UHGV virus genome: UHGV-0174372
Direction: 5' to 3' (one strand)
Source: a virus
DNA length: 35,240 nt
Part shown: positions 1,287-25,699 of the stretch, piece after piece
Layout: each line of letters starts with the position of its first letter
Position numbering within the stretch: position 1 is the first letter of the stretch
Made by a program: the position numbers and the translations under genes
The notes under the pieces: generated by a model
Seen by the model: the letters and a program-made list of their open reading frames with translations, nothing else
What the model was told of the DNA's origin: nothing
The model's database searches: none

Positions 1287-4241
1287 TTAATCGGCGGTAG
1301 TATCGTGACGGTTATAGACAATAACGATATCGTCTTTAAGTCCGATGTCGCCGCTGGCCTCAATGTCCAGCTTTTTACCTATAGTTGCTCTTGATGCTTC
1401 GGAGACAACGGTAAAGAGACGCATGTCTTTATCTGGCCCCATGGCATCGAGTTCAACACCGATAATAGACGCATCGAGGGTTTCACTCAACGCATTACCG
1501 ATTTCTGTTGCAGAGATTGTTAGATGATTACCCAAGTAATCATTGATAACCTGAGACGTTTTCTTACGAATCTGCGTTAAGAGCTCGGTGTTATTACGGT
1601 TAGCAGCTGTTAGGTAATAACGCACGGTGAACTGGTTTTCCGCAGGGACAGGTGTCACTACCCCGTCCTCGGTACGGGCGTCGATATACCCCATTGTTGT
1701 AATCGGCACAAAGTAACCTTCGGTACGTTCTAACAGCATAGGCTTCAAAGTCGGTAGTATTACTGTAACGTAGTTAACGATGTTTTCGATAACTTCATTC
1801 AGATACGATTTTGCAGAAGGCGTCGTCGCGAATTTATATCGCGCATCGAATACCGCCATCTCACTACGGAATTTGATAGAACGCGATTTCGCAATTTTCG
1901 GATTGCCGAACTCGTCTTTAACTAAGTCTCCCTCACGATGTAGGACGATCTGTTCTCCAGCCTCGTCGAGTTTAGGATCACCTTTACGATGCTCGTACGT
2001 AATCTGAAGTGGCGGCGTGCGACCTGCGTCGTAGGTGTAGATTGGTACACCGTTCTCATCGCGTTTAACCACATCGATTTCCCACGTTGCCATCACGTCT
2101 TTTTCGTAATACTGGTAGTTAATGCTGTCAGTAACAGCACGCGCTTTACGCCAGTAGTACGTCATTGCTTTACCCAATTCGATTTTGAAAATCTCGTGAG
2201 TAATACCAATAGCATCGCGTGACGGGGCAGTGATTAACGCATCCATTTCCGCACGTTCGTAATTACCAGGATAATAACCGGTGCAGCCGTAGAACAGGTT
2301 GAAGTCCGTTGTCAGCGGTACAGGCGTTTCCGTGGGTGTGCTACTACTAATGCGTGTATTCGTTAGCATTAGTTCGTCGTTACGGTCAACGTCTAGGTTG
2401 GTTTCCAGCAGGAATTCCCATACGCGTTCACTACCCTGTTTACCGACTAACGTACCGTTGATATACGCTAAAGTGTTGTCTGCATTACGTGGACGGAACG
2501 ATAGCTGTGCAAAAACTTGATCGTCAGTCAGTGCTTGATAAGGTGCCTCTGACTTCGTTACGGTGCGCAATACATAACCGGCTTCGGTCTTTTCGATAGT
2601 GTAGTCGGCTGTTACCACACTGAGTTCCGTGCTTACGTTAGTGGCAATAAAGCGTTTGGAGTTTAACGTCGGTTTATCTAATTGATAAATACGAACGTCA
2701 ATGGCTTTATTGTTGATATCCACAACGTAATGGAATGGTGTAAAGAGATAACGATTAGCGTTGGCCGCGTTAATCAAATCTTCTTTACGCATGGTTTTTG
2801 CCAAGACCGTCATTTCCGCATCAACCGTCAAGCTGGTGTCGGTGAACCGATAAAGTGTGTCAGGAAGAATCGTCAGGCGATTACCGTTAACCTTTACCGT
2901 CGGTAGATTAACCAATTCATTCCAGGAGAAATAGAACGGTGCCGTGATCGTCCCGATGGGAGAACTGACATTGGGAATTGTCGATTCGAGCATCGGTGCC
3001 GTTAAGAAGTATGTACGGCTAGTAACATAGTCGTTTGGTTTCGACAACGTTAGATCGTAGTCAGAAACCGTTGCTTCTAATTGTTTCTCCGTTACAGGGA
3101 GTTTTCGTGCACCTACCGCGTTATTGACCACACGTGTACGCAAATCTTCGAACGTGAGCTGGCTACGACCACCTGACAACATTTTACCTGCTTTTGCAGC
3201 CATCTGTTTGATGGAAAAACTCTTAATCGGGTTAACGTAGTTTTCGTCGTATTCACCGTTTAAATCACGCAATGTAAACGTGTATTCGTCAGACGGATAA
3301 GCTGAGATATCGACACTTAAAGGCCCTAAGGTCGTGTAGATATCCATACGAATTTCGCCGCTGACCAAATTCTTTGCCATGTAGATCGAGGGGATAGTAC
3401 ACCGTATAACACCGTCACCGACCTGGATTAACGCGGTTGGGGTGTTGGGGTCGTAAACGTCACGACTGTGCGTATGCTGAATTTCAACCCACTTGTTATC
3501 GTTGGTTGATTTCATCCACACCCTTACGTAGAAAAATTTGTTAGTGTAATGGCGGGTCATGACAAAGGTATTTTTCCCCGCAACGGTGTCACTTTCGTTC
3601 TTCACCGCATACTGCATAACTGGGATATGGATTGCCAGTAGTTGCGAGGCCGTGGTGTTAGACGATGTCAATTCCCAATCCAGCGCATTCGTCGATACAG
3701 GAGAAATAGGTGACTGCGTTTCGGTAATCCAAAGAACCTGAAATGCCGGGTTTTCATTGGTGCCGTAAGGAAGTACCCTGATTTCAATCGGGTACTGGAT
3801 GGCAAAGGTGTAACCTGACACCGTGAAAACTGTGTCACGTGGGATAACAACCTTACGCACACCCGCTATTTGTAAAGGGTACGCCTTGGAGATTAAGCTA
3901 TCAACATCGATTAATAACAACAACTCGGTGGTTGAAGGTTGGGCGAACACATCAACGTAGTCCACATCGGACATATGTCGGAACAGGTCATCGTACGTTT
4001 GCGCCATCGATGGAAATGTTTTTGGCACTGATTCTTGCAACCCCATAAGCGTTGCATGGCCCAACATTGTCCCCATTTCCGCCAAATAAACAACAGGGTC
4101 TGTTGGGTCACGTAACACTATTTGGCCTTCGGCGTCTTCTACATCCAGAAGCTGATTCAAGAGCAGTGTTTGCATCGCTGCCGGATGGTGGGCAAACAAC
4201 AATATGTTCTTTGCCAAAGTATCGTAAGTCGTAGAACTCAT
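1287..4241 (-). CDS. hypothetical large phage protein (984 aa), probably virion-associated
   Basis: Long uninterrupted ORF; its ATG (4239-4241) shares one nucleotide with the upstream gene's TGA (TGATG overlap), implying translational coupling. No motif recognised by eye. Confidence 0.8.
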   Translation of the reverse strand: MSSTTYDTLAKNILLFAHHPAAMQTLLLNQLLDVEDAEGQIVLRDPTDPVVYLAEMGTMLGHATLMGLQESVPKTFPSMAQTYDDLFRHMSDVDYVDVFAQPSTTELLLLIDVDSLISKAYPLQIAGVRKVVIPRDTVFTVSGYTFAIQYPIEIRVLPYGTNENPAFQVLWITETQSPISPVSTNALDWELTSSNTTASQLLAIHIPVMQYAVKNESDTVAGKNTFVMTRHYTNKFFYVRVWMKSTNDNKWVEIQHTHSRDVYDPNTPTALIQVGDGVIRCTIPSIYMAKNLVSGEIRMDIYTTLGPLSVDISAYPSDEYTFTLRDLNGEYDENYVNPIKSFSIKQMAAKAGKMLSGGRSQLTFEDLRTRVVNNAVGARKLPVTEKQLEATVSDYDLTLSKPNDYVTSRTYFLTAPMLESTIPNVSSPIGTITAPFYFSWNELVNLPTVKVNGNRLTILPDTLYRFTDTSLTVDAEMTVLAKTMRKEDLINAANANRYLFTPFHYVVDINNKAIDVRIYQLDKPTLNSKRFIATNVSTELSVVTADYTIEKTEAGYVLRTVTKSEAPYQALTDDQVFAQLSFRPRNADNTLAYINGTLVGKQGSERVWEFLLETNLDVDRNDELMLTNTRISSSTPTETPVPLTTDFNLFYGCTGYYPGNYERAEMDALITAPSRDAIGITHEIFKIELGKAMTYYWRKARAVTDSINYQYYEKDVMATWEIDVVKRDENGVPIYTYDAGRTPPLQITYEHRKGDPKLDEAGEQIVLHREGDLVKDEFGNPKIAKSRSIKFRSEMAVFDARYKFATTPSAKSYLNEVIENIVNYVTVILPTLKPMLLERTEGYFVPITTMGYIDARTEDGVVTPVPAENQFTVRYYLTAANRNNTELLTQIRKKTSQVINDYLGNHLTISATEIGNALSETLDASIIGVELDAMGPDKDMRLFTVVSEASRATIGKKLDIEASGDIGLKDDIVIVYNRHDTTAD

Positions 4242-7635: not shown

Positions 7636-8196
7636 ATGTTTGAGCACGATAGTCCTGAATTTAATGTTGCTGTAGAGCGCATTAAATCCTACATGTCGAT
7701 TTTATCGAAAAACCCAATCGACACACACGATGACGAGGTTATTCACAAAACACTGGAAGCCGCCGCCGTTATTTTACCGTACTTTCGTCTGATGGCTGCT
7801 GATTCTTTGCAGCAAGTATTATATGACGAATATCCGCAGGTCGGATTTACCTTTAATACGTTTTATAACGAAAGTGTAGATTTCTTGCTGGATGGTAAGC
7901 GACGTAATGTGACGTTAGGGCAGTGGTCGACTTTGCTGTCGTCGTATATGAACGATGTTCGTAACACGAAGAATGTTGAACAGACGGGTGCATTAGGCTC
8001 GCGTCTATTAGCTGCTGCGTTTGGTCGCCGAGGTACTGTACGTAATATGGGCTCTGCTCACCAATCTGTTGAGTGTAGCAAACGTCTTTTATCTTATGCA
8101 GACCATGAACTGCTGGCACGCTGGATGACGCGCCCGAACGGGTTGTCCGACATGATCTCGTCGTTAGCAGTGTTTTTGAAAATCGCACGTCCCTAA
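7636..8196 (+). CDS. hypothetical phage protein (186 aa)
   Basis: ATG 7636 preceded by aggagagg; ORF ends at 8196. Confidence 0.75.
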   Translation: MFEHDSPEFNVAVERIKSYMSILSKNPIDTHDDEVIHKTLEAAAVILPYFRLMAADSLQQVLYDEYPQVGFTFNTFYNESVDFLLDGKRRNVTLGQWSTLLSSYMNDVRNTKNVEQTGALGSRLLAAAFGRRGTVRNMGSAHQSVECSKRLLSYADHELLARWMTRPNGLSDMISSLAVFLKIARP

Positions 8197-8255
8197 GGGG
8201 GCCCCTCATTCTAGGGGCGTGTAATTGGGTTATATAACCAAAGGAAATAAACGAA

Positions 8256-9527
8256 ATGGCAAATTTCGCAAAAACTCGCGCCGCTCGTGAATCGATGGAA
8301 GCGGCCGATGAAGTAATCGACGGTATCAGCAACGTTGAACCGGCAGAAGAGAACCTGGACGTCCAACTTGCGGACGTAGCATCTATCGACGGTCAGCTCG
8401 ATCAGCTGGAAACCGACGGTGAAACCCTGGCTGCCGATACCGAGCGTACTGAAGACGCTATCGAACAGGCGGAAGAAGCCGTTGCTAACGGTGAAGAAAT
8501 GCCGGAAGAAGCGGTTGCCCTGCACGAAGTGGCACAGGAATCCATCGCACGTCGTTGGTGCCTGGAACGTACTAAACTGGCTCGCGAATCCTATCGTCGT
8601 GGCCGTGGTATGACTGCTGCTGCCCAGGAAGGTTGGAAAGAAACCCTGAAAGATCTTTACGATCGTTTCATTCAGTTCTGTAAAGAAGTGATTGCGAAGA
8701 TCAAAGACCTGAAACTGAAATATTTCAATGTCGGTAAGACCGCACAGAAACGTGCGAAGAAATATCAGGAAATGCTGCGTAAGCTGGGCAAACAGAAGAA
8801 AGATGAAATCTCTGGTGGCTTTATCACCAAGCTGTCTATCGAAGGTAAATTCGATGCTGCTGGCTCTATCGCTATTGCGAAAGAAGTTACCGCCGGTAAA
8901 GCTAAAGGTTCCATCGGTGCTCTGGAAAAACAAGCTGGTGAAGCTGTGACTGCCGTTACCAAAGGTGACGATGACGCATTCAAGGCAATGCGTGGTGATC
9001 AGCCGGTAGAACTGTTTGGTAAAGCTGCTTCTAAACTGCACACTCTGCCGAACTTTGAAAAAGGCGATGCGTCTAAACTGCTGGCGCTGCCGGGCAACGC
9101 TTACATTCAGGCTGGTACTAAAGAACTGGCTGGCGGTCACAAGTTCACTGCAATCGCGTTCATGAGCACCGGCGACGCTTCTGACGATAAAGACGTGAAA
9201 ACTCCGTCTGTTTCTGAAATGGCTGGCGCTGCTTCTGCTCTGGAAGCGATCGGTAAAGGCTTCGAAGCCGTACTGAAAGATTTCCGTGCCTACGATTCTG
9301 AAATCGTGAAGCTGCAACAGGCTGCTGAGAATGCTGCTAAGGCGCTGAACAACGAAAAAGACGATAGCAAGTGGGATGGCCTGCGTAACGCACGTCAAGC
9401 TGCCGATTGGTCTGTTAAGAACTACCAGACCCTGAACCGCGCAGTTAGCTATGTTGCTAACACCGTTATTAGCGGTCTGAATGGCTACCTGGGTGCTGGT
9501 ATCGGTGCTTACGAAAAATCTAAATAA
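8256..9527 (+). CDS. high-abundance virion protein, paralog A (423 aa); candidate protease-processed internal head protein
   Basis: ATG 8256 with aaggaaa Shine-Dalgarno; strongly biased codon usage (ctg/cgt/ggt/aaa/gaa); N-terminus MANFAKTRAARES; internal AQESIARRW and ARESY; C-terminus GLNGYLGAGIGAYEKSK shared with the next gene. Confidence 0.85.
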   Translation: MANFAKTRAARESMEAADEVIDGISNVEPAEENLDVQLADVASIDGQLDQLETDGETLAADTERTEDAIEQAEEAVANGEEMPEEAVALHEVAQESIARRWCLERTKLARESYRRGRGMTAAAQEGWKETLKDLYDRFIQFCKEVIAKIKDLKLKYFNVGKTAQKRAKKYQEMLRKLGKQKKDEISGGFITKLSIEGKFDAAGSIAIAKEVTAGKAKGSIGALEKQAGEAVTAVTKGDDDAFKAMRGDQPVELFGKAASKLHTLPNFEKGDASKLLALPGNAYIQAGTKELAGGHKFTAIAFMSTGDASDDKDVKTPSVSEMAGAASALEAIGKGFEAVLKDFRAYDSEIVKLQQAAENAAKALNNEKDDSKWDGLRNARQAADWSVKNYQTLNRAVSYVANTVISGLNGYLGAGIGAYEKSK

Positions 9528-9571
9528 TCGTTTAGATTCGTAGTTCCGTACAGTTCTTGAAATAAATCATC

Positions 9572-9592
9572 AGGGGAACGTATTGTTCCCCT
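9572..9592 (+). other. GC hairpin without U-tract between paralog genes (possible attenuator or RNA processing site)
   Basis: 8-bp stem aggggaac/gttcccct with a 5-nt loop, sited in the spacer just upstream of the paralog B ribosome-binding site; no T-run follows. Confidence 0.3.
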
Positions 9593-9609
9593 TAGAGGAA
9601 AAGCTTAAA

Positions 9610-10875
9610 ATGGCGAATTTCTACAAAAACAAAATTGCTCGTGAGTCTATGGAGTCTACTTCTACTGTAGTTCCAGACGGCATCGAACTGCCAGCAGAAT
9701 CCGTAGAAGGCACTCTGGCCGATATCGAGCATGACACCAAACCGATCGAAGCTCTGGACGCTGACGCTGAACTGCTGGCAGAAGACGGTGACGAAACTGA
9801 CGCTCAGCTGGATGTTCTGGACGAAGCTCAGGCTGCTGCTGACGGTGAAGGTGCTGGCGAAGACGGTGAAGAACCGATGGACGCCGAAGAAGATATGCCG
9901 GACGACGCTGCGACTGCGCTGGACGTTGCTCAGGAATCTATCCGTTCTCGTTGGAACTTCGAACACCGTTCTTCTGTTGCTCACGAATCCTACGGTTCTC
10001 GTAACCGTCGTCAGGTTGCTCGTGAATCCCTGTGGGAAGACATCAAAGCCTTCCTGGGCCGTATTCTCGATTGGCTGAAAGAACAAGGCCGCAAACTGAA
10101 AGATCGCTGGCTGAAATTCCACAACCAGGGTAAATCTATTCAGGCACGTGCTAAGAAATACGATGAAGTTATTCGTAAGCTGGGCAAACAGAAGAAAGAT
10201 GAAATCTCTGGTGGTTTCATCAAGTCTCTGTCTATCGACGGCAAGTTCGTCGGTGATAATATTCCGAAACTGAAAGGTATCCTTAACCAGGTCTCCTCGT
10301 TCTATAGCGCTAAGATGCCTGCCATGGCCGCTAAAGCTGCTGAAGTGGTTTCCGATGTTACCAAAGGTAATGGCGTTAAAGTTGAAAAACTGAAAGCCGA
10401 CTTTACCGAACTGTCCAAACAAGACAGTCTCCAAAACTTCAAGCTCGGTAACATGGCGGTGAAAACCGAGTATGACAACGAAGGCGGCTTCAGCTCCACC
10501 TTTGTTGAAGCTGAAAACAGCGTTGAAACTAGCGTGAAAACTCCGTCTGTTGGCGAACTGGCCAAAATCAATGCTCTCTTCAACGAAGTGGGTAAACAGA
10601 TTGAGAAGAACGTTCAGGATTACCGTAAAGTCGAAAGCGCGCGGAAAACCTTTGAAGATAATATCGATAAGCTCCTGAAAGAAGTCGATAAAGTTAAGAT
10701 CGACGAAAAACCGGAACTGACCGAAGGTGTACGTGCTGCCCGTCGTTTCATCACCAGCGTTAACCAGGGTCTGTCTCTGGGTGAGAAGGTTATTGCTTCT
10801 ACTCAGAAACACCTGGCCGGTGGTCTGAATGGCTACCTGGGTGCTGGTATCGGCGCTTACGAAAAATCTAAATAA
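9610..10875 (+). CDS. high-abundance virion protein, paralog B (421 aa)
   Basis: ATG 9610 (the track start at 9583 is a TTG) with gaggaaa Shine-Dalgarno; N-terminus MANFYKNKIARES; AQESIRSRW, AHESY, ARESL; a 41-nt tract identical to paralog A (10174-10214 vs 8778-8818) and a near-identical 54-nt 3' end. Confidence 0.85.
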   Translation: MANFYKNKIARESMESTSTVVPDGIELPAESVEGTLADIEHDTKPIEALDADAELLAEDGDETDAQLDVLDEAQAAADGEGAGEDGEEPMDAEEDMPDDAATALDVAQESIRSRWNFEHRSSVAHESYGSRNRRQVARESLWEDIKAFLGRILDWLKEQGRKLKDRWLKFHNQGKSIQARAKKYDEVIRKLGKQKKDEISGGFIKSLSIDGKFVGDNIPKLKGILNQVSSFYSAKMPAMAAKAAEVVSDVTKGNGVKVEKLKADFTELSKQDSLQNFKLGNMAVKTEYDNEGGFSSTFVEAENSVETSVKTPSVGELAKINALFNEVGKQIEKNVQDYRKVESARKTFEDNIDKLLKEVDKVKIDEKPELTEGVRAARRFITSVNQGLSLGEKVIASTQKHLAGGLNGYLGAGIGAYEKSK

Positions 10876-10893
10876 TCCCTGATTGTTTAGTAA

Positions 10894-10940
10894 GAGAACC
10901 ACCCTGTAATGGGGTGGTTCTCTCTTTTCTTTTTTTTTCG
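10894..10940 (+). terminator. intrinsic terminator
   Basis: 11-bp stem gagaaccaccc/gggtggttctc followed by a long T-run (ttttctttttttttcg). Confidence 0.7.
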
Positions 10941-10950
10941 ATTAAAATAA

Positions 10951-10978
10951 TTTTCAGATATATATTACCTAGGTGAGA
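10951..10978 (+). promoter_or_regulatory. candidate phage early promoter (TATATTAC core), copy 1
   Basis: ttttcagatatatattacctaggtgaga; a 27-nt tract identical to 19206-19232, placed just after a terminator and about 50 nt upstream of the next ATG. Confidence 0.45.
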
Positions 10979-11028
10979 ATACTGTGTAATCTCTTTACGA
11001 CTTGTTTATTACGTTTAGGAGAAATATC

Positions 11029-11670
11029 ATGAGCCGCATTAATTTAACCGATTTTGTTGATGGTGTTGTGTCTATGGATAAAGGTGTCGTTACGATGGTG
11101 GCACCGAATAGTAAAGTTGTTACTTTAAATCCGGTAGAACTGATTTCTATTTCTACCTGGTTGCGCTTACTTTCTGGTAAGAAACCTAAAGACCAAGCGA
11201 AGGGTGGCTTATTAGTTGGTACACGTGAGTTTGTTTTCAAAGACATAACCCAAGATAAACTGGACAGCATTGCTAAAGAACTGAACGGCAAGCATAAAAC
11301 TCGCGACATCGGGAGTGCCGAACATGACGGTGTAACGTACCATGCATTTCTTGATAGTCACGTAGCATTGCGTGAAAAAGAAAATGGGTTGTACGAATCA
11401 GTTAGTTTCTTTCATTTAATCGCACCAACAGAAAACGAAGCTGTGTATGAAACCGTTGAAAAATCGGCGGAAGCTGTTATGGAAACGGTGTCAGAACTTA
11501 TAGAAGGGATGAAAAGAATCCCACGTGTGTTGAAAGTTACTGATGGGGCTTTCGATTGTTTTAAATTATTACCCCTAATAGCTAGTAAAGAATACGAAGA
11601 TGAGAACACCTTCGGACTATTCGAAATTAGTCTTTCGGAAGCAGTTGTTACTTTCTTTGAAGATTTATGA
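11029..11670 (+). CDS. hypothetical early protein (213 aa)
   Basis: ATG 11029 with aggag at 7-nt spacing (the track start at 11002 is a TTG); more AT-rich codon usage than the structural genes; followed by a terminator. Confidence 0.75.
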   Translation: MSRINLTDFVDGVVSMDKGVVTMVAPNSKVVTLNPVELISISTWLRLLSGKKPKDQAKGGLLVGTREFVFKDITQDKLDSIAKELNGKHKTRDIGSAEHDGVTYHAFLDSHVALREKENGLYESVSFFHLIAPTENEAVYETVEKSAEAVMETVSELIEGMKRIPRVLKVTDGAFDCFKLLPLIASKEYEDENTFGLFEISLSEAVVTFFEDL

Positions 11671-11674
11671 GATA

Positions 11675-11705
11675 AAAACCCTCTACGGAGGGTTTTATTT
11701 TTTCG
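11675..11705 (+). terminator. intrinsic terminator
   Basis: Stem aaccctc/gagggtt with tacg loop followed by ttattttttcg. Confidence 0.6.
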
Positions 11706-11723
11706 ACCTTTAGGAGAATAGAA

Positions 11724-12275
11724 ATGAACAAATTTAATATTTTAGACGCTGAAGTCGTATCTGAAACCAGTTTACAGCAGGAAATCTTTCGCATTCAGTT
11801 TGGCGATAAAACCCTTATCGTCCCACGCCCGGTAATGATTGGACTGGCTATTTTTATTAACTGTGCGCATTGTAATGGTTCTCAACTCTCCACGCTCACT
11901 TACAACAATTACGAATTCTATATTCCGGAACACCTGGAATATAATCGCTTCATTGCTTTACGCCCGTTCTACAAGTTTATGTTAGACGCAGGTTATTCTA
12001 CACTGACGAAAACGTACATTCGTGATTATTCGAAGCTGGAAACGTTCTATCGTCGTCGCGGTTATCGTGTTCCTGAGCCTATTGACGGTTTTCAAACACG
12101 CGTTGTATTACTTAAACCGCTAGAAAAAGAACTGGCTTGCTATAAACTTGATATTGAGCAGAAGTTACTGCGTGAGGATTTGTTGAATTTATACAATCAG
12201 CTTTCAGTTGTACCGAAAGCCACAGTAGAAAACATTCTACCTGATTACGGAATTAGACAATATCAGGAAGGTTAA
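11724..12275 (+). CDS. hypothetical early protein (183 aa)
   Basis: ATG 11724 preceded by taggagaa. Confidence 0.75.
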   Translation: MNKFNILDAEVVSETSLQQEIFRIQFGDKTLIVPRPVMIGLAIFINCAHCNGSQLSTLTYNNYEFYIPEHLEYNRFIALRPFYKFMLDAGYSTLTKTYIRDYSKLETFYRRRGYRVPEPIDGFQTRVVLLKPLEKELACYKLDIEQKLLREDLLNLYNQLSVVPKATVENILPDYGIRQYQEG

Positions 12276-12276
12276 A

Positions 12277-12582
12277 ATGAAACTCAAAGCCGATGCGATA
12301 TGTGTTGTTAAGTTGCCGGAAAGTAATGTGGTGTACTGCGTAAAACGGCTAGACATTCGATTACTGATACCGAGACTTAATGAACCTGGTTGGAATGGGG
12401 ATTTGATGATTCCACTGATCAGGCCACTCCCTACGAACGATGGCAATATAACGCATTTGCATATGGAAGCCAAAGGGCGGTACATCACCGTTTATCATTT
12501 AGCCGATCAGTACAAAACGACCCGGTATACCCGAAAAGATTTTATACGCCATTTAAGAGGCTCACTGGAGATAAAGAAATGA
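12277..12582 (+). CDS. hypothetical protein (101 aa)
   Basis: ATG 12277 with aggaagg Shine-Dalgarno, 1 nt after the previous stop; its TGA overlaps the DHFR start (ATGA). Confidence 0.6.
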   Translation: MKLKADAICVVKLPESNVVYCVKRLDIRLLIPRLNEPGWNGDLMIPLIRPLPTNDGNITHLHMEAKGRYITVYHLADQYKTTRYTRKDFIRHLRGSLEIKK

Positions 12583-23404: not shown

Positions 23405-25699
23405 ATGAAAGATACCCGAATCTCTAATCTGGAGAAACTCGTACAAGCTGGTAACTCGCTGGTACAAAGCGTCATTAGTAACAACAGTGCTGGCGAAATG
23501 TGGAACACCATCGTTGCTGGTGAGTCTGTACGTAGCAACACGAAAGTTTTTGGTACCCTGCGTGACGATGCTGCACAGCACTACGCAAACGCGTTTGCTG
23601 GCGGTAAGAAAATGTCCCACGCTGCGGAAGTTGCTTCTGCAATGATTCTGGGTGCTGCTGGTCACGGTATGGACCTGCAAGAAAAAGTAGCGCAAGAATA
23701 CGCTAAGCCAGAATTCCATAGCCGTTTTAACCTGGACGTTGCGATTCCTGGTTCCCAAGCTGGTAACGGCGACTGGGGCAAAGAGCGTATGGTTGTTGCT
23801 CAGGAATACTACACCAACAAAGATTACGACAAAAACCTGGGTCTGACCTGGACGCTGAACGTACGTGCTCTGGAAACTCAGTCTCGTTTCGCTGAGACTC
23901 TGTTCCCGACCATCACCGTTGACACCAACGATGTTGGTATTACCGTACGTACCAAAGTGACCACCGTTTCTCGTGGTGTCATGCACGCGTTACTGACCAA
24001 AGACGTTGTTGAAGATCATCGTCGTAACCTGCACGAAGCGCTGACTGACCACACCGTTCTTCAGGACGAAGCGATCAACATCGTTCCTTACGTAATGGAA
24101 ACCGGTGAAAATGCTGAATACTTCGTAAGCGAAGAACTGGTACCGAACGAATCTGTTCGCCTGGGTCGTGTACCTCCGTACCCGACTAACTACCTGAGCT
24201 TTGCTAAAGACACTCTGAACCTGTTCCAGCTGTCTGCGCATCCGGGTATCGTTCAGGAAGGTTACGACGAAACTGATGAAATCGCACCGGGTTGTGCTCT
24301 GGGCAGCCTGCTGATTTCTGTACGTAAACCGACCGAAGAAGCGAAAGCAGGTAAATTCATTAAACTGCACGTTCGTGACATGCAGTTCGCAACCTTCCAG
24401 CGTCCTGCTGAAGGTGATGGCCGTGAGCTGGTACTGCAATTCCGTCGTACTGCGTTCTCTCTGAATGCGAAAACCACCGACTGGAAAGGCGAAGCTATTC
24501 CGGCACTGAAATCACTGGAACAGAACTCCTACACCCTGCGTTATGTGATCACCATCAACATGTCTCTGTTCACTACCGGTCAGTTCGGTGGTAAAGTTGA
24601 CATCGCTGGTCACAAACTGGAAATCGAAGGTCTGTACGACGCTACCGGTAACAAAGTTGATACCAAATCTGGTACCGGCAAAGTTATCCTGGACGGTCTG
24701 AAACTTGAACTGATGGGCTGGCGCTTCGATGGTACTCGTACCAACGAAAACCGTCGTACCCAGGGTCTGCTGCTTGACCCAATCTGGGAACAAGAAAACT
24801 ACAAACTGCAATACGGTTCTCCGATCCTGACCAAGTCTCCGGTTGGCGTTGAATACGACGATACCGAACGTCTGGACGACCTGATTTCCGCAGTTAACAT
24901 CCGTAACGAACAGCTGGCTATCACTCAGACGCTGTCTTACACCGAAGCGGTACGTAACGCTGCTGCAAGCATGATCACTCCGTGGGACAAACCGGCCATT
25001 CGTGGTCTGGGCCGTCACTGGGTTGCTCCGTGGTTCAAAGAGTCTGACTACAACGTTGATGAAGTTGTACAGTCCCTGGATACCAAAGATGCACTGATCA
25101 ACGCTCGTCAGGGCCTGGTACAGCGTATCGGTAATCAGGTAACTCAGGCTATCCAGGAATCTCGCTTCATTCCTGCGCTGCGTCTGTACACTGCCGATCC
25201 GGACATTCTGCCGAAAGTTGTTATTGCAACTGACGAACCGACTGCATCTATGCTGCTGCTGGTACAGGGCGACCAACGTCTGCTGGGCGATCGCTACGAA
25301 TACGAAGTGATCACCACCAACGATGACCGCTGGCGTATCTACAACGCAGCTGACGGTTCCTGGACTCGTCGTCTGCAATGGTTCCTGAAAGTTCCGACTG
25401 CGGACGATGGTTCCTACAACGTGCTGAACTGGGGTAACCACTTCTGGTCTCCGATCATGGTTACCAATATCAACATTCAGCGTAACGGTTCTACCTCTAA
25501 AGAGCTGGCCGTACAGCCGCGCAACGCGCACATCTGCCACTGCCCGATCACCGGTCTGATCTGGGTTAAAGGCATCACCAAACTGGTTGAAGAAAAACTG
25601 GCTTACAATGTTTCTGTTGAACAGAACGGTCAGAAACAAACCGAAGGTGGTGTAGCAGGTAACGTTGCTGGCGAAGGCAAAGCTGCTGCTGGTAAGTAA
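23405..25699 (+). CDS. candidate major capsid protein (764 aa); product assignment tentative
   Basis: The most strongly codon-optimised ORF in the window; size is in the range I recall for phiKZ-type major capsid proteins; N-terminal SAGE and AGES motifs; strong terminator downstream. Confidence 0.8.
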   Translation: MKDTRISNLEKLVQAGNSLVQSVISNNSAGEMWNTIVAGESVRSNTKVFGTLRDDAAQHYANAFAGGKKMSHAAEVASAMILGAAGHGMDLQEKVAQEYAKPEFHSRFNLDVAIPGSQAGNGDWGKERMVVAQEYYTNKDYDKNLGLTWTLNVRALETQSRFAETLFPTITVDTNDVGITVRTKVTTVSRGVMHALLTKDVVEDHRRNLHEALTDHTVLQDEAINIVPYVMETGENAEYFVSEELVPNESVRLGRVPPYPTNYLSFAKDTLNLFQLSAHPGIVQEGYDETDEIAPGCALGSLLISVRKPTEEAKAGKFIKLHVRDMQFATFQRPAEGDGRELVLQFRRTAFSLNAKTTDWKGEAIPALKSLEQNSYTLRYVITINMSLFTTGQFGGKVDIAGHKLEIEGLYDATGNKVDTKSGTGKVILDGLKLELMGWRFDGTRTNENRRTQGLLLDPIWEQENYKLQYGSPILTKSPVGVEYDDTERLDDLISAVNIRNEQLAITQTLSYTEAVRNAAASMITPWDKPAIRGLGRHWVAPWFKESDYNVDEVVQSLDTKDALINARQGLVQRIGNQVTQAIQESRFIPALRLYTADPDILPKVVIATDEPTASMLLLVQGDQRLLGDRYEYEVITTNDDRWRIYNAADGSWTRRLQWFLKVPTADDGSYNVLNWGNHFWSPIMVTNINIQRNGSTSKELAVQPRNAHICHCPITGLIWVKGITKLVEEKLAYNVSVEQNGQKQTEGGVAGNVAGEGKAAAGK

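Follow-up and report, generated by a model that had tools for sequence, protein, structure and literature searches.

The 35,240-nucleotide stretch of viral DNA UHGV-0174372, analysed here over its whole length and called the window below, carries two adjacent paralogous genes, A (8256-9527, plus strand) and B (9610-10875, plus strand), which are only ~50% identical in DNA and share short tracts of identical sequence. A and B are very probably this phage's versions of gp53 and gp54 of phage SPN3US, which are internal head (ejection) proteins, with the shared DNA tracts produced by repeated short gene conversion between the two genes. The nucleotide identity is best explained as the footprint of ectopic gene conversion and not as a functional DNA or RNA element. 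The two proteins themselves are new members of a known and well-studied family; the novelty lies in the short-patch gene conversion that continues between their genes, a modest evolutionary detail. It provides a clean, time-resolved case of very short-patch conversion in phage paralogs of ~50% DNA identity, and a caution for phylogenies and for studies of the ratio of nonsynonymous to synonymous substitution rates (dN/dS) in paralog families of jumbo phages.

Family, gene order and codon usage of genes A and B

Gene A encodes 423 amino acids (45.7 kDa) and gene B encodes 421 amino acids (46.3 kDa) counted from the ATG at 9610. The ATG was taken as the start of gene B; the TTG at 9583 given by the open reading frame (ORF) tool sits within a hairpin and is used by no ortholog. 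The two proteins are 36% identical over the full length (BLASTP, E = 1e-56), so the description of two adjacent paralogs of ~420 residues in the initial annotation was correct. Both proteins match PF12699 (phiKZ_IP), the family of internal head proteins of phiKZ-like phages, which has a gathering cut-off of 27 bits. Gene A scored 243.6 bits, with residues 44-414 aligned to positions 2-387 of the 387-position profile, and gene B scored 195.1 bits over residues 42-410. The A protein is 68% identical in amino acids to SPN3US gp53 and 73% to Asesino gp70, the B protein is 62% identical to SPN3US gp54, and the same tandem order is found in SPN3US (gp53/gp54), Asesino (gp70/gp71) and 13 other phages. 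The earlier suggestion that these are paralogous virion genes is supported, by homology, through the shared PF12699 family and the syntenic orthology to gp53/gp54. The source of the window is a SPN3US/Asesino-like jumbo phage, whose best GenBank megablast matches are ~75-76% identical; the phage itself was not found in GenBank by megablast. Family and orthology allow A and B to be annotated confidently as internal head/ejection proteins, gp53-like and gp54-like respectively, with predicted maturation sites.

Genes A and B and the major capsid gene are the most codon-biased genes of the window. The effective number of codons is 31.7 for A and 35.2 for B, in agreement with the strong codon optimisation described in the initial annotation, and 32.3 for the gene of the phiKZ-type major capsid protein (23405-25699; PF25620, 696 bits), and lies between 44 and 59 for the other ORFs. 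This trio mirrors the three most abundant head proteins of SPN3US (PMC5694885, PMC7552025) and was therefore counted in favour of the gene identity. In SPN3US, gp53 and gp54 form "paralog family A" and are present in more than 600 copies each per head (PMC5694885); mass spectrometry places both, along with the capsid protein, in the top three head proteins by abundance (PMC5694885, PMC10052503). Protease-deficient capsids contain a T=1 inner shell built mainly from these two proteins, which are classed as ejection proteins (PMC7552025).

The likeness to SPN3US extends to the arrangement of the locus, since in both phages the pair lies in tandem between a gp52-like gene and small genes upstream of DHFR, with the same gene lengths. 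Both phages share the leader motif and the A-X-E sites (ARE-12, AQE-95 and AQE-125 in A; AQE/AHE-124/126 and ARE-137/139 in B), as well as the extreme codon bias that is expected of proteins which a head contains in over 600 copies (PMC5694885). On the other hand, the nucleotide identity of only ~75% indicates a different species or genus, and gene A of the window lacks the terminal Ala codon of SPN3US gp53. The leaders of the two paralogs are identical in SPN3US while the central and C-terminal tracts differ, and the reverse is true for the window. A sequence search of the PDB found no relative with a solved structure, and AlphaFold2, run on an A+B alignment of the window sequences only, gave a mostly helical model with a mean predicted local distance difference test score of 45.7, which is too poor for a fold search. 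The inner body was not resolved in the 2026 structural atlas of phiKZ (PMC13250141).

Identical tracts and the case for gene conversion

Three tracts of shared DNA were found, all on the plus strand. The central tract of gene A (RKLGKQKKDEISGG, 8778-8818) is identical to 10174-10214 of gene B over all 41 nucleotides, exactly as initially annotated. The C-terminal tract takes in the final 17 codons and the stop and ends 2 nucleotides after it, with the A copy (GLNGYLGAGIGAYEKSK, the stop and TC) at 9474-9529 and the B copy at 10822-10877; the single mismatch reported earlier was found again, over a length that we measured as 56 nucleotides. The third tract, a 19-nucleotide patch encoding VKTPSV (9194-9212 in A, 10533-10551 in B), is exact and was missing from the initial list.

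These runs are hard to obtain by chance. Codons were redrawn 5000 times from the genes' own usage with both proteins held fixed, and the longest run reached at least 41 nucleotides in 0.26% of the trials (P = 0.0026), the second at least 32 nucleotides in none (P = 0) and the third at least 19 nucleotides in 0.24% (P = 0.0024). At columns with identical amino acids, the same codon is used in 36 of 39 cases inside the tracts and in 57 of 98 outside (Fisher P = 8e-5). A Sawyer/GENECONV-style permutation over polymorphic sites, a kind of test across related phages put forward in the initial annotation, gave runs of 32, 24 and 16 sites, each with P < 1/2000 (6-18 sites in the other genomes), under a null that ignores rate variation along the gene and for which the same columns in other genomes serve as the control.

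That control was provided by the A/B pairs of the window and 15 GenBank phages (16 genomes), including SPN3US, Asesino, phiEaH2, 1252, STsAS, five pEa_SNUABM phages, Caitlin, Wellington, ChrisDB and Machina; the 16 phages span the genera Seoulvirus, Erskinevirus, Machinavirus, Wellingtonvirus and Derbicusvirus. A and B differ at 2 positions of the central tract (48 nucleotides compared) in the window and at 12-25 in the 15 other genomes. The corresponding numbers are 0 and 4-13 for the VKTPSV patch (18 nucleotides), and 1 and 7-21 for the C-terminal tract (51 coding nucleotides). The A and B peptides of relatives are different from each other in these same places, for example KENIS versus KDTVS, IATPAI versus VSTPSA, and YIGAGIG...KSKA versus YISAGIG...KSK. 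Both copies in the window share derived states, namely the Leu in GYLG, AAA instead of AAG, and the absence of the terminal Ala codon.

The trees are discordant in the same manner. The columns outside the tracts group the A genes of the 16 phages apart from their B genes with 100% bootstrap, which places the duplication before the origin of these genera, and the overall synonymous divergence (dS) between A and B is ~1.3, i.e., saturated. In the tract columns alone, A and B of the window are sisters, also with 100% bootstrap. Pairwise dN/dS, the other comparison put forward earlier, is 0.02-0.24 and shows strong purifying selection on both genes. Gene conversion is strongly supported by the tree discordance, the 15 other genomes and the four close relatives described next.

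The close relatives are four IMG/VR contigs, L016 to L019, which are metagenome assemblies and mutually consistent; their DNA identity to the window is 98.2-92.8% in gene A and 98.9-82.3% in gene B. In the central tract, gene A of L019 keeps KQDKDNIS, an older A-type form with 11 different nucleotides, and the B copies read KQKKDEIS in all five sequences. It follows that the central tract moved from B (donor) to A (recipient) after the split from L019; the opposite direction, which had first been inferred from distances to SPN3US, was overturned by L019. The VKTPSV patch probably went from B to A as well, as gene A of L019 has VATPSV. The C-terminal tract of gene B reads YISAGIAAY in L018 and L019, YLSAGIGAY in L016 and L017, and YLGAGIGAY, the same as gene A, in the window. 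This series indicates that gene A was the likely donor and that gene B was converted stepwise, in at least two steps, the last of them after the split from the 99%-identical relative. The last step can be located in a window-specific micro-conversion at 10830-10845 (plus strand), inside the C-terminal tract. Gene B of the window differs from that of the 98.9%-identical L016 at 14 of 1266 positions, and four of these differences fall within these 16 nucleotides, all carrying the base of gene A (clustering P = 0.003-0.005).

Other lineages bear the marks of exchange in other blocks. In L019 the first 47 nucleotides from the ATG are identical in A and B (2501-2547 and 3849-3895 of that contig) and the upstream regions differ; its gene B carries an A-type leader, MANFAKTRAARESME, which points to a conversion from A to B as an independent event at a different block. 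In more distant phages, the longest A-B runs are found in the leader of SPN3US, 1252, SNUABM_29, STsAS and Caitlin (23-29 nucleotides) and SNUABM_8 (20 nucleotides), and SPN3US and 1252 also have runs of 20-29 nucleotides at the block of the AQESI cleavage site. Without exception, the patches that were converted fall within the small number of blocks that have the highest A/B likeness throughout the family.

These observations indicate the following course. After an old duplication, selection on the proteins and shared codon bias have kept a few blocks alike, namely the leader, the AQESI cleavage site, the central LGK..K..ISGGFI, the TPS patch and the C-terminal GLNGY.GAGIGAY. Their DNA has stayed similar enough for homologous recombination to start there between the tandem copies, and patches of ~10-50 nucleotides have been copied repeatedly, from A to B as well as from B to A, with the blocks concerned differing from lineage to lineage. 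Concerted evolution by short-patch gene conversion is known from tufA/tufB in Salmonella. Conserved cassettes that mediate shuffling have been described in T4-type phages (PMC2839356). Both systems have in common with the window the identity patches within diverged paralogs, the discordance between patch and flank trees, and the homogenised synonymous sites; the window differs from them in its very short patches (10-50 nucleotides), in the ~50% DNA identity of the paralogs, and in the restriction to four or five conserved blocks. A literature search found no earlier report of gene conversion between PF12699 paralogs.

The initial annotation had left gene conversion and nucleotide-level constraint side by side, and only the former is upheld. 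Under the latter, the tracts would be functional elements, such as an RNA structure, a regulator or small-RNA site, or a packaging or recombination signal, that need the exact sequence in both genes. The exact identity does reach synonymous positions and 2 nucleotides beyond the stop, and the sequence surrounding the central tract in gene B folds somewhat better than shuffled sequences (z = -2.28), but that in gene A does not (z = +0.71), and RNA folding of both tract copies gave no common structure. Synonymous variants within the tracts (GAA/GAG, TCT/TCC, AAT/AAC, AAA/AAG) are found among the 15 phages and the 93-99%-identical relatives. Codon choice among orthologs is no more restricted inside the tracts (entropy 0.62/0.77 bits) than it is outside them (0.76/0.71 bits), the paralogs of other genomes show 7-25 differences over these tracts, and an Rfam search of 8000-11100 with E up to 1 had no match, so that a functional element is very improbable. 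Purifying selection on the proteins together with shared codon bias, acting without recombination, is hardly a better candidate and has only a slight chance of being the whole explanation. It would account for the location of the tracts in the blocks of greatest family-wide A/B likeness, and the codon bias is so extreme that ~58% of the amino-acid-identical columns outside the tracts share the codon. However, the codon redraw rarely or never gives such runs, codons are shared more often inside the tracts (36 of 39) than outside (57 of 98), the peptides are homogenised only in the lineage of the window with derived states shared by both copies, and the close relatives show intermediate states.

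The two remaining explanations concern the origin of the tracts. The tandem layout and equal length of the genes would suit a recent duplication, with the tracts as the remnant of a young duplicate whose middle diverged fast, but this is refuted by the separation of the A and B clades over the 16 phages and by the saturated dS under strong purifying selection on both genes, and we give it practically no weight. Separate import of the tracts into both genes from co-infecting phages is slightly easier to imagine but still highly unlikely. Inter-phage exchange does occur, as implied by the jump in dS of gene B described below, and the GAA/GAG state at 8807/10203 departs from a simple tree of the close relatives. 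Nevertheless, a phage that donated the tracts would have to carry homogenised A and B copies already, and the tract is absent from GenBank and IMG/VR phages outside a small clade, with the exact 41-mer present in one other contig, once. In addition, at 10830 (AAT) the window-specific patch reproduces a base that is a derived state of gene A of the window itself.

Several points weigh against the interpretation of A and B as gp53/gp54 proteins homogenised by gene conversion, besides the rate variation that the permutation null ignores. The directions of the tracts come from parsimony on five closely related sequences, four of them metagenome-assembled. Compared with L016, both paralogs carry parallel synonymous changes, T to A at 8582/9981 (the Ala codon of the ARE/AHE site) and GAA to GAG at 8807/10203; they are suggestive of ongoing homogenisation but not significant by themselves, as P was 0.19 in a conservative column-coincidence test that did not yet demand an identical base change. 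Against L018 and L019, dS is 0.54 for gene B and 0.21-0.25 for gene A. Inter-phage recombination is thus also at work at the locus, and some of the shared tract states could be imported. The presence of A and B in virions, their cleavage and their ejection are likely by homology from the experiments on SPN3US and phiKZ, and the gene of the prohead protease lies outside the window. Finally, the conversion may be neutral or may be selected.

Gene B of the window (9610-10875) shows 82-87% nucleotide identity to its counterparts in L018 (3855-5120) and L019 (3849-5111), versus 93-94% for gene A, with a dN/dS of 0.11-0.24. A high dS with a low dN/dS points to the replacement of all or part of gene B from a more distant phage, and not to positive selection.

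That the micro-conversions are more than a neutral by-product of recombination is a speculative proposal, which we hold to be rather doubtful. Under it, they would represent concerted evolution of assembly signals, or the conserved blocks would serve as recombination linkers between co-infecting phages, or both. Conversion may keep the assembly and processing modules of A and B matched to common partners, such as the protease, a gp243-like loading factor and the inner surface of the capsid. If so, a change in one copy would spread fast to the other, and the homogenised module would show what the lineage is adapting. Conserved DNA blocks may also let co-infecting jumbo phages swap segments of internal-protein genes, and a hint in this direction is that the dS separating gene B from its counterparts in L018 and L019 is doubled.

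Leaders, predicted propeptides and maturation sites

The leader of A (MANFAKTRAARE, 8256-8291, plus strand) and that of B (MANFYKNKIARE, 9610-9645, plus strand), read from the translations, both end at the A-X-E site ARE-12 and differ in 4 of 12 residues. The initial annotation had listed the shared N-terminal peptide along with the identical DNA; the common peptide MANFxKxxxARESME is real in the proteins, but 15 of its 45 nucleotides differ between A and B, and the leader is therefore not among the identical nucleotide tracts of the window. None of the 42 A and B genes that were compared lacks the leader motif; 32 of them come from the 16-genome set and ten from L016-L019 and L021, a second copy of SPN3US. 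When the other ORFs of the window were searched for the MANF...ARES.E leader, only A and B were found to carry it.

The initial annotation had also proposed a short N-terminal peptide ending at a protease-type site, similar to the capsid-targeting propeptides of T4 internal proteins. SPN3US gp53 and gp54 are substrates of the prohead protease gp245, which cleaves after A-X-E (PMC10052503), and the sites mapped by mass spectrometry are ARE-12, AQE-95 and AQE-125 in gp53, and AQE-124 and ARE-137 (followed by SLWDDIK) in gp54 (PMC10052503, Table 2). ARE-12 is accordingly a mapped gp245 site in SPN3US gp53 that is kept in both proteins of the window, but the peptide that ends there would be only the first piece of a propeptide of 125 or 139 residues. 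All five mapped SPN3US sites are kept in the window as sequence motifs, the three of gp53 at identical residue numbers and the two of gp54 shifted by two. The predicted propeptide of A (8256-8630, plus strand; residues 1-125) has an isoelectric point (pI) of 4.2 and contains ARE-12, AQE-95, ARE-111 and the putative maturation site AQE-125, followed by GWKETLK. That of B (9610-10026, plus strand; residues 1-139) has a pI of 4.1 and contains ARE-12, AQE-109, AHE-126 and the putative maturation site ARE-139, followed by SLWEDIK. The predicted mature parts are basic (A, pI 9.3, 32.0 kDa; B, pI 9.4, 31.3 kDa), and the combination of acidic propeptides and basic mature parts fits proteins that are packed with DNA.

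By homology, A and B would be produced late and in very large amounts, and the precursors would enter the prohead with a long acidic propeptide (pI ~4.1-4.2) headed by the conserved 12-residue leader. The prohead protease would then cut after A-X-E, at ARE-12, AQE-95 and AQE-125 in A and at ARE-12, AQE-109, AHE-126 and ARE-139 in B, and the propeptide fragments would exit the head. The basic mature proteins (~31-32 kDa, pI ~9.3-9.4) would remain with the DNA and subsequently be ejected into the host. A further candidate site at the C-terminus, AYE/KSK, was rejected: the Glu is not kept in orthologs (AYG, AYA, AYK, AYD), and cleavage of this type is not reported for SPN3US (PMC10052503).

The identical leaders of gp53 and gp54 in SPN3US were taken in 2017 as a sign of functional importance (PMC5694885). 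Among the lineages compared here, leader identity comes and goes, and it extends to synonymous sites and rare codons, which suggests that conversion left most of the identity seen in SPN3US. Judging from the alignment, real constraint would act only on the leader residues N3, F4, A10, R11, E12, S13 and E15, and this list narrows the choice of leader residues that merit mutation in targeting tests.

The analogy to the T4 capsid targeting sequence (CTS) was drawn for gp53/gp54 in 2017 (PMC5694885); the T4-like leader idea and much of what the initial annotation read from this locus are already in the literature. The T4 internal proteins IPI-IPIII resemble A and B, as these are understood here, in being abundant, basic, DNA-associated and ejected, and in losing, as A and B would, a short conserved N-terminal peptide that the prohead protease cuts off after Glu. 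However, the T4 CTS (10-20 residues) is the whole propeptide and is sufficient for targeting, whereas the 12-residue leader of A and B probably just heads a propeptide of 125-139 residues; the protease family and the cleavage motif of T4 are different, and A and B belong to a different Pfam family. The phiKZ proteins are closer. gp93, gp95, gp97, gp162 and others of phiKZ belong to PF12699 as A and B do, and the inner-body proteins of phiKZ are also a multi-paralog set, protease-processed, present in high copy number, packaged with the DNA and partly injected (bioRxiv 10.1101/2024.03.24.586471; PMC5694885), with gp93, gp95 and gp97 being injected with the genome (bioRxiv 10.1101/2024.03.24.586471). 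There are 5-7 paralogs and a visible cylindrical inner body in phiKZ, compared with two paralogs in SPN3US-like phages. The phiKZ protease motif is S/A/G-X-E, while the sites in the window are A-X-E, and the phiKZ paralogs are too dissimilar to A and B to be found by tblastn at E below 1e-5.

Putative transcription signals and neighbouring genes

Folding revealed an intergenic hairpin, (A)GGGGAAC-N5-GTTCCCC(T), at 9572-9592 (plus strand), located 17 nucleotides upstream of the ATG of gene B and without a T-run. Its stem is unchanged in L016-L019 and its loop differs in three of these four, AACGC being common to L017 and L018. It is perhaps a conserved RNA or DNA hairpin with a role in transcript processing, stability or partial termination. 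The A-B pair is closed by a predicted intrinsic terminator at 10893-10938 (plus strand), which consists of a 14-bp stem followed by a T-run (-24.2 kcal/mol, z = -5.35) and is kept in L016-L019. A scan for sigma-70 promoters found one weak match, below the number in shuffled sequences, and is uninformative because such phages have their own RNA polymerases.

Long antisense ORFs in codon register lie over both genes, at 8211-9398 (minus strand, 395 amino acids) and at 9592-10902 (minus strand, 436 amino acids). Genes A and B contain no TTA, CTA or TCA codons, so the complementary frame is free of stops, and these ORFs were rejected as genes and regarded as a by-product of the codon bias. The gene directly upstream of A (7636-8196) has a weak match to PF25618, the family of the phiKZ gp91 vertex-binding protein (29.8 bits versus a cut-off of 27). 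Just downstream of the pair are two small genes, 11029-11670, for which a Pfam scan had no match, and 11724-12275. The guanine plus cytosine content across 11000-12300, which includes both, is 0.39-0.40 versus ~0.46 elsewhere, and the gene content of this region also varies among relatives.

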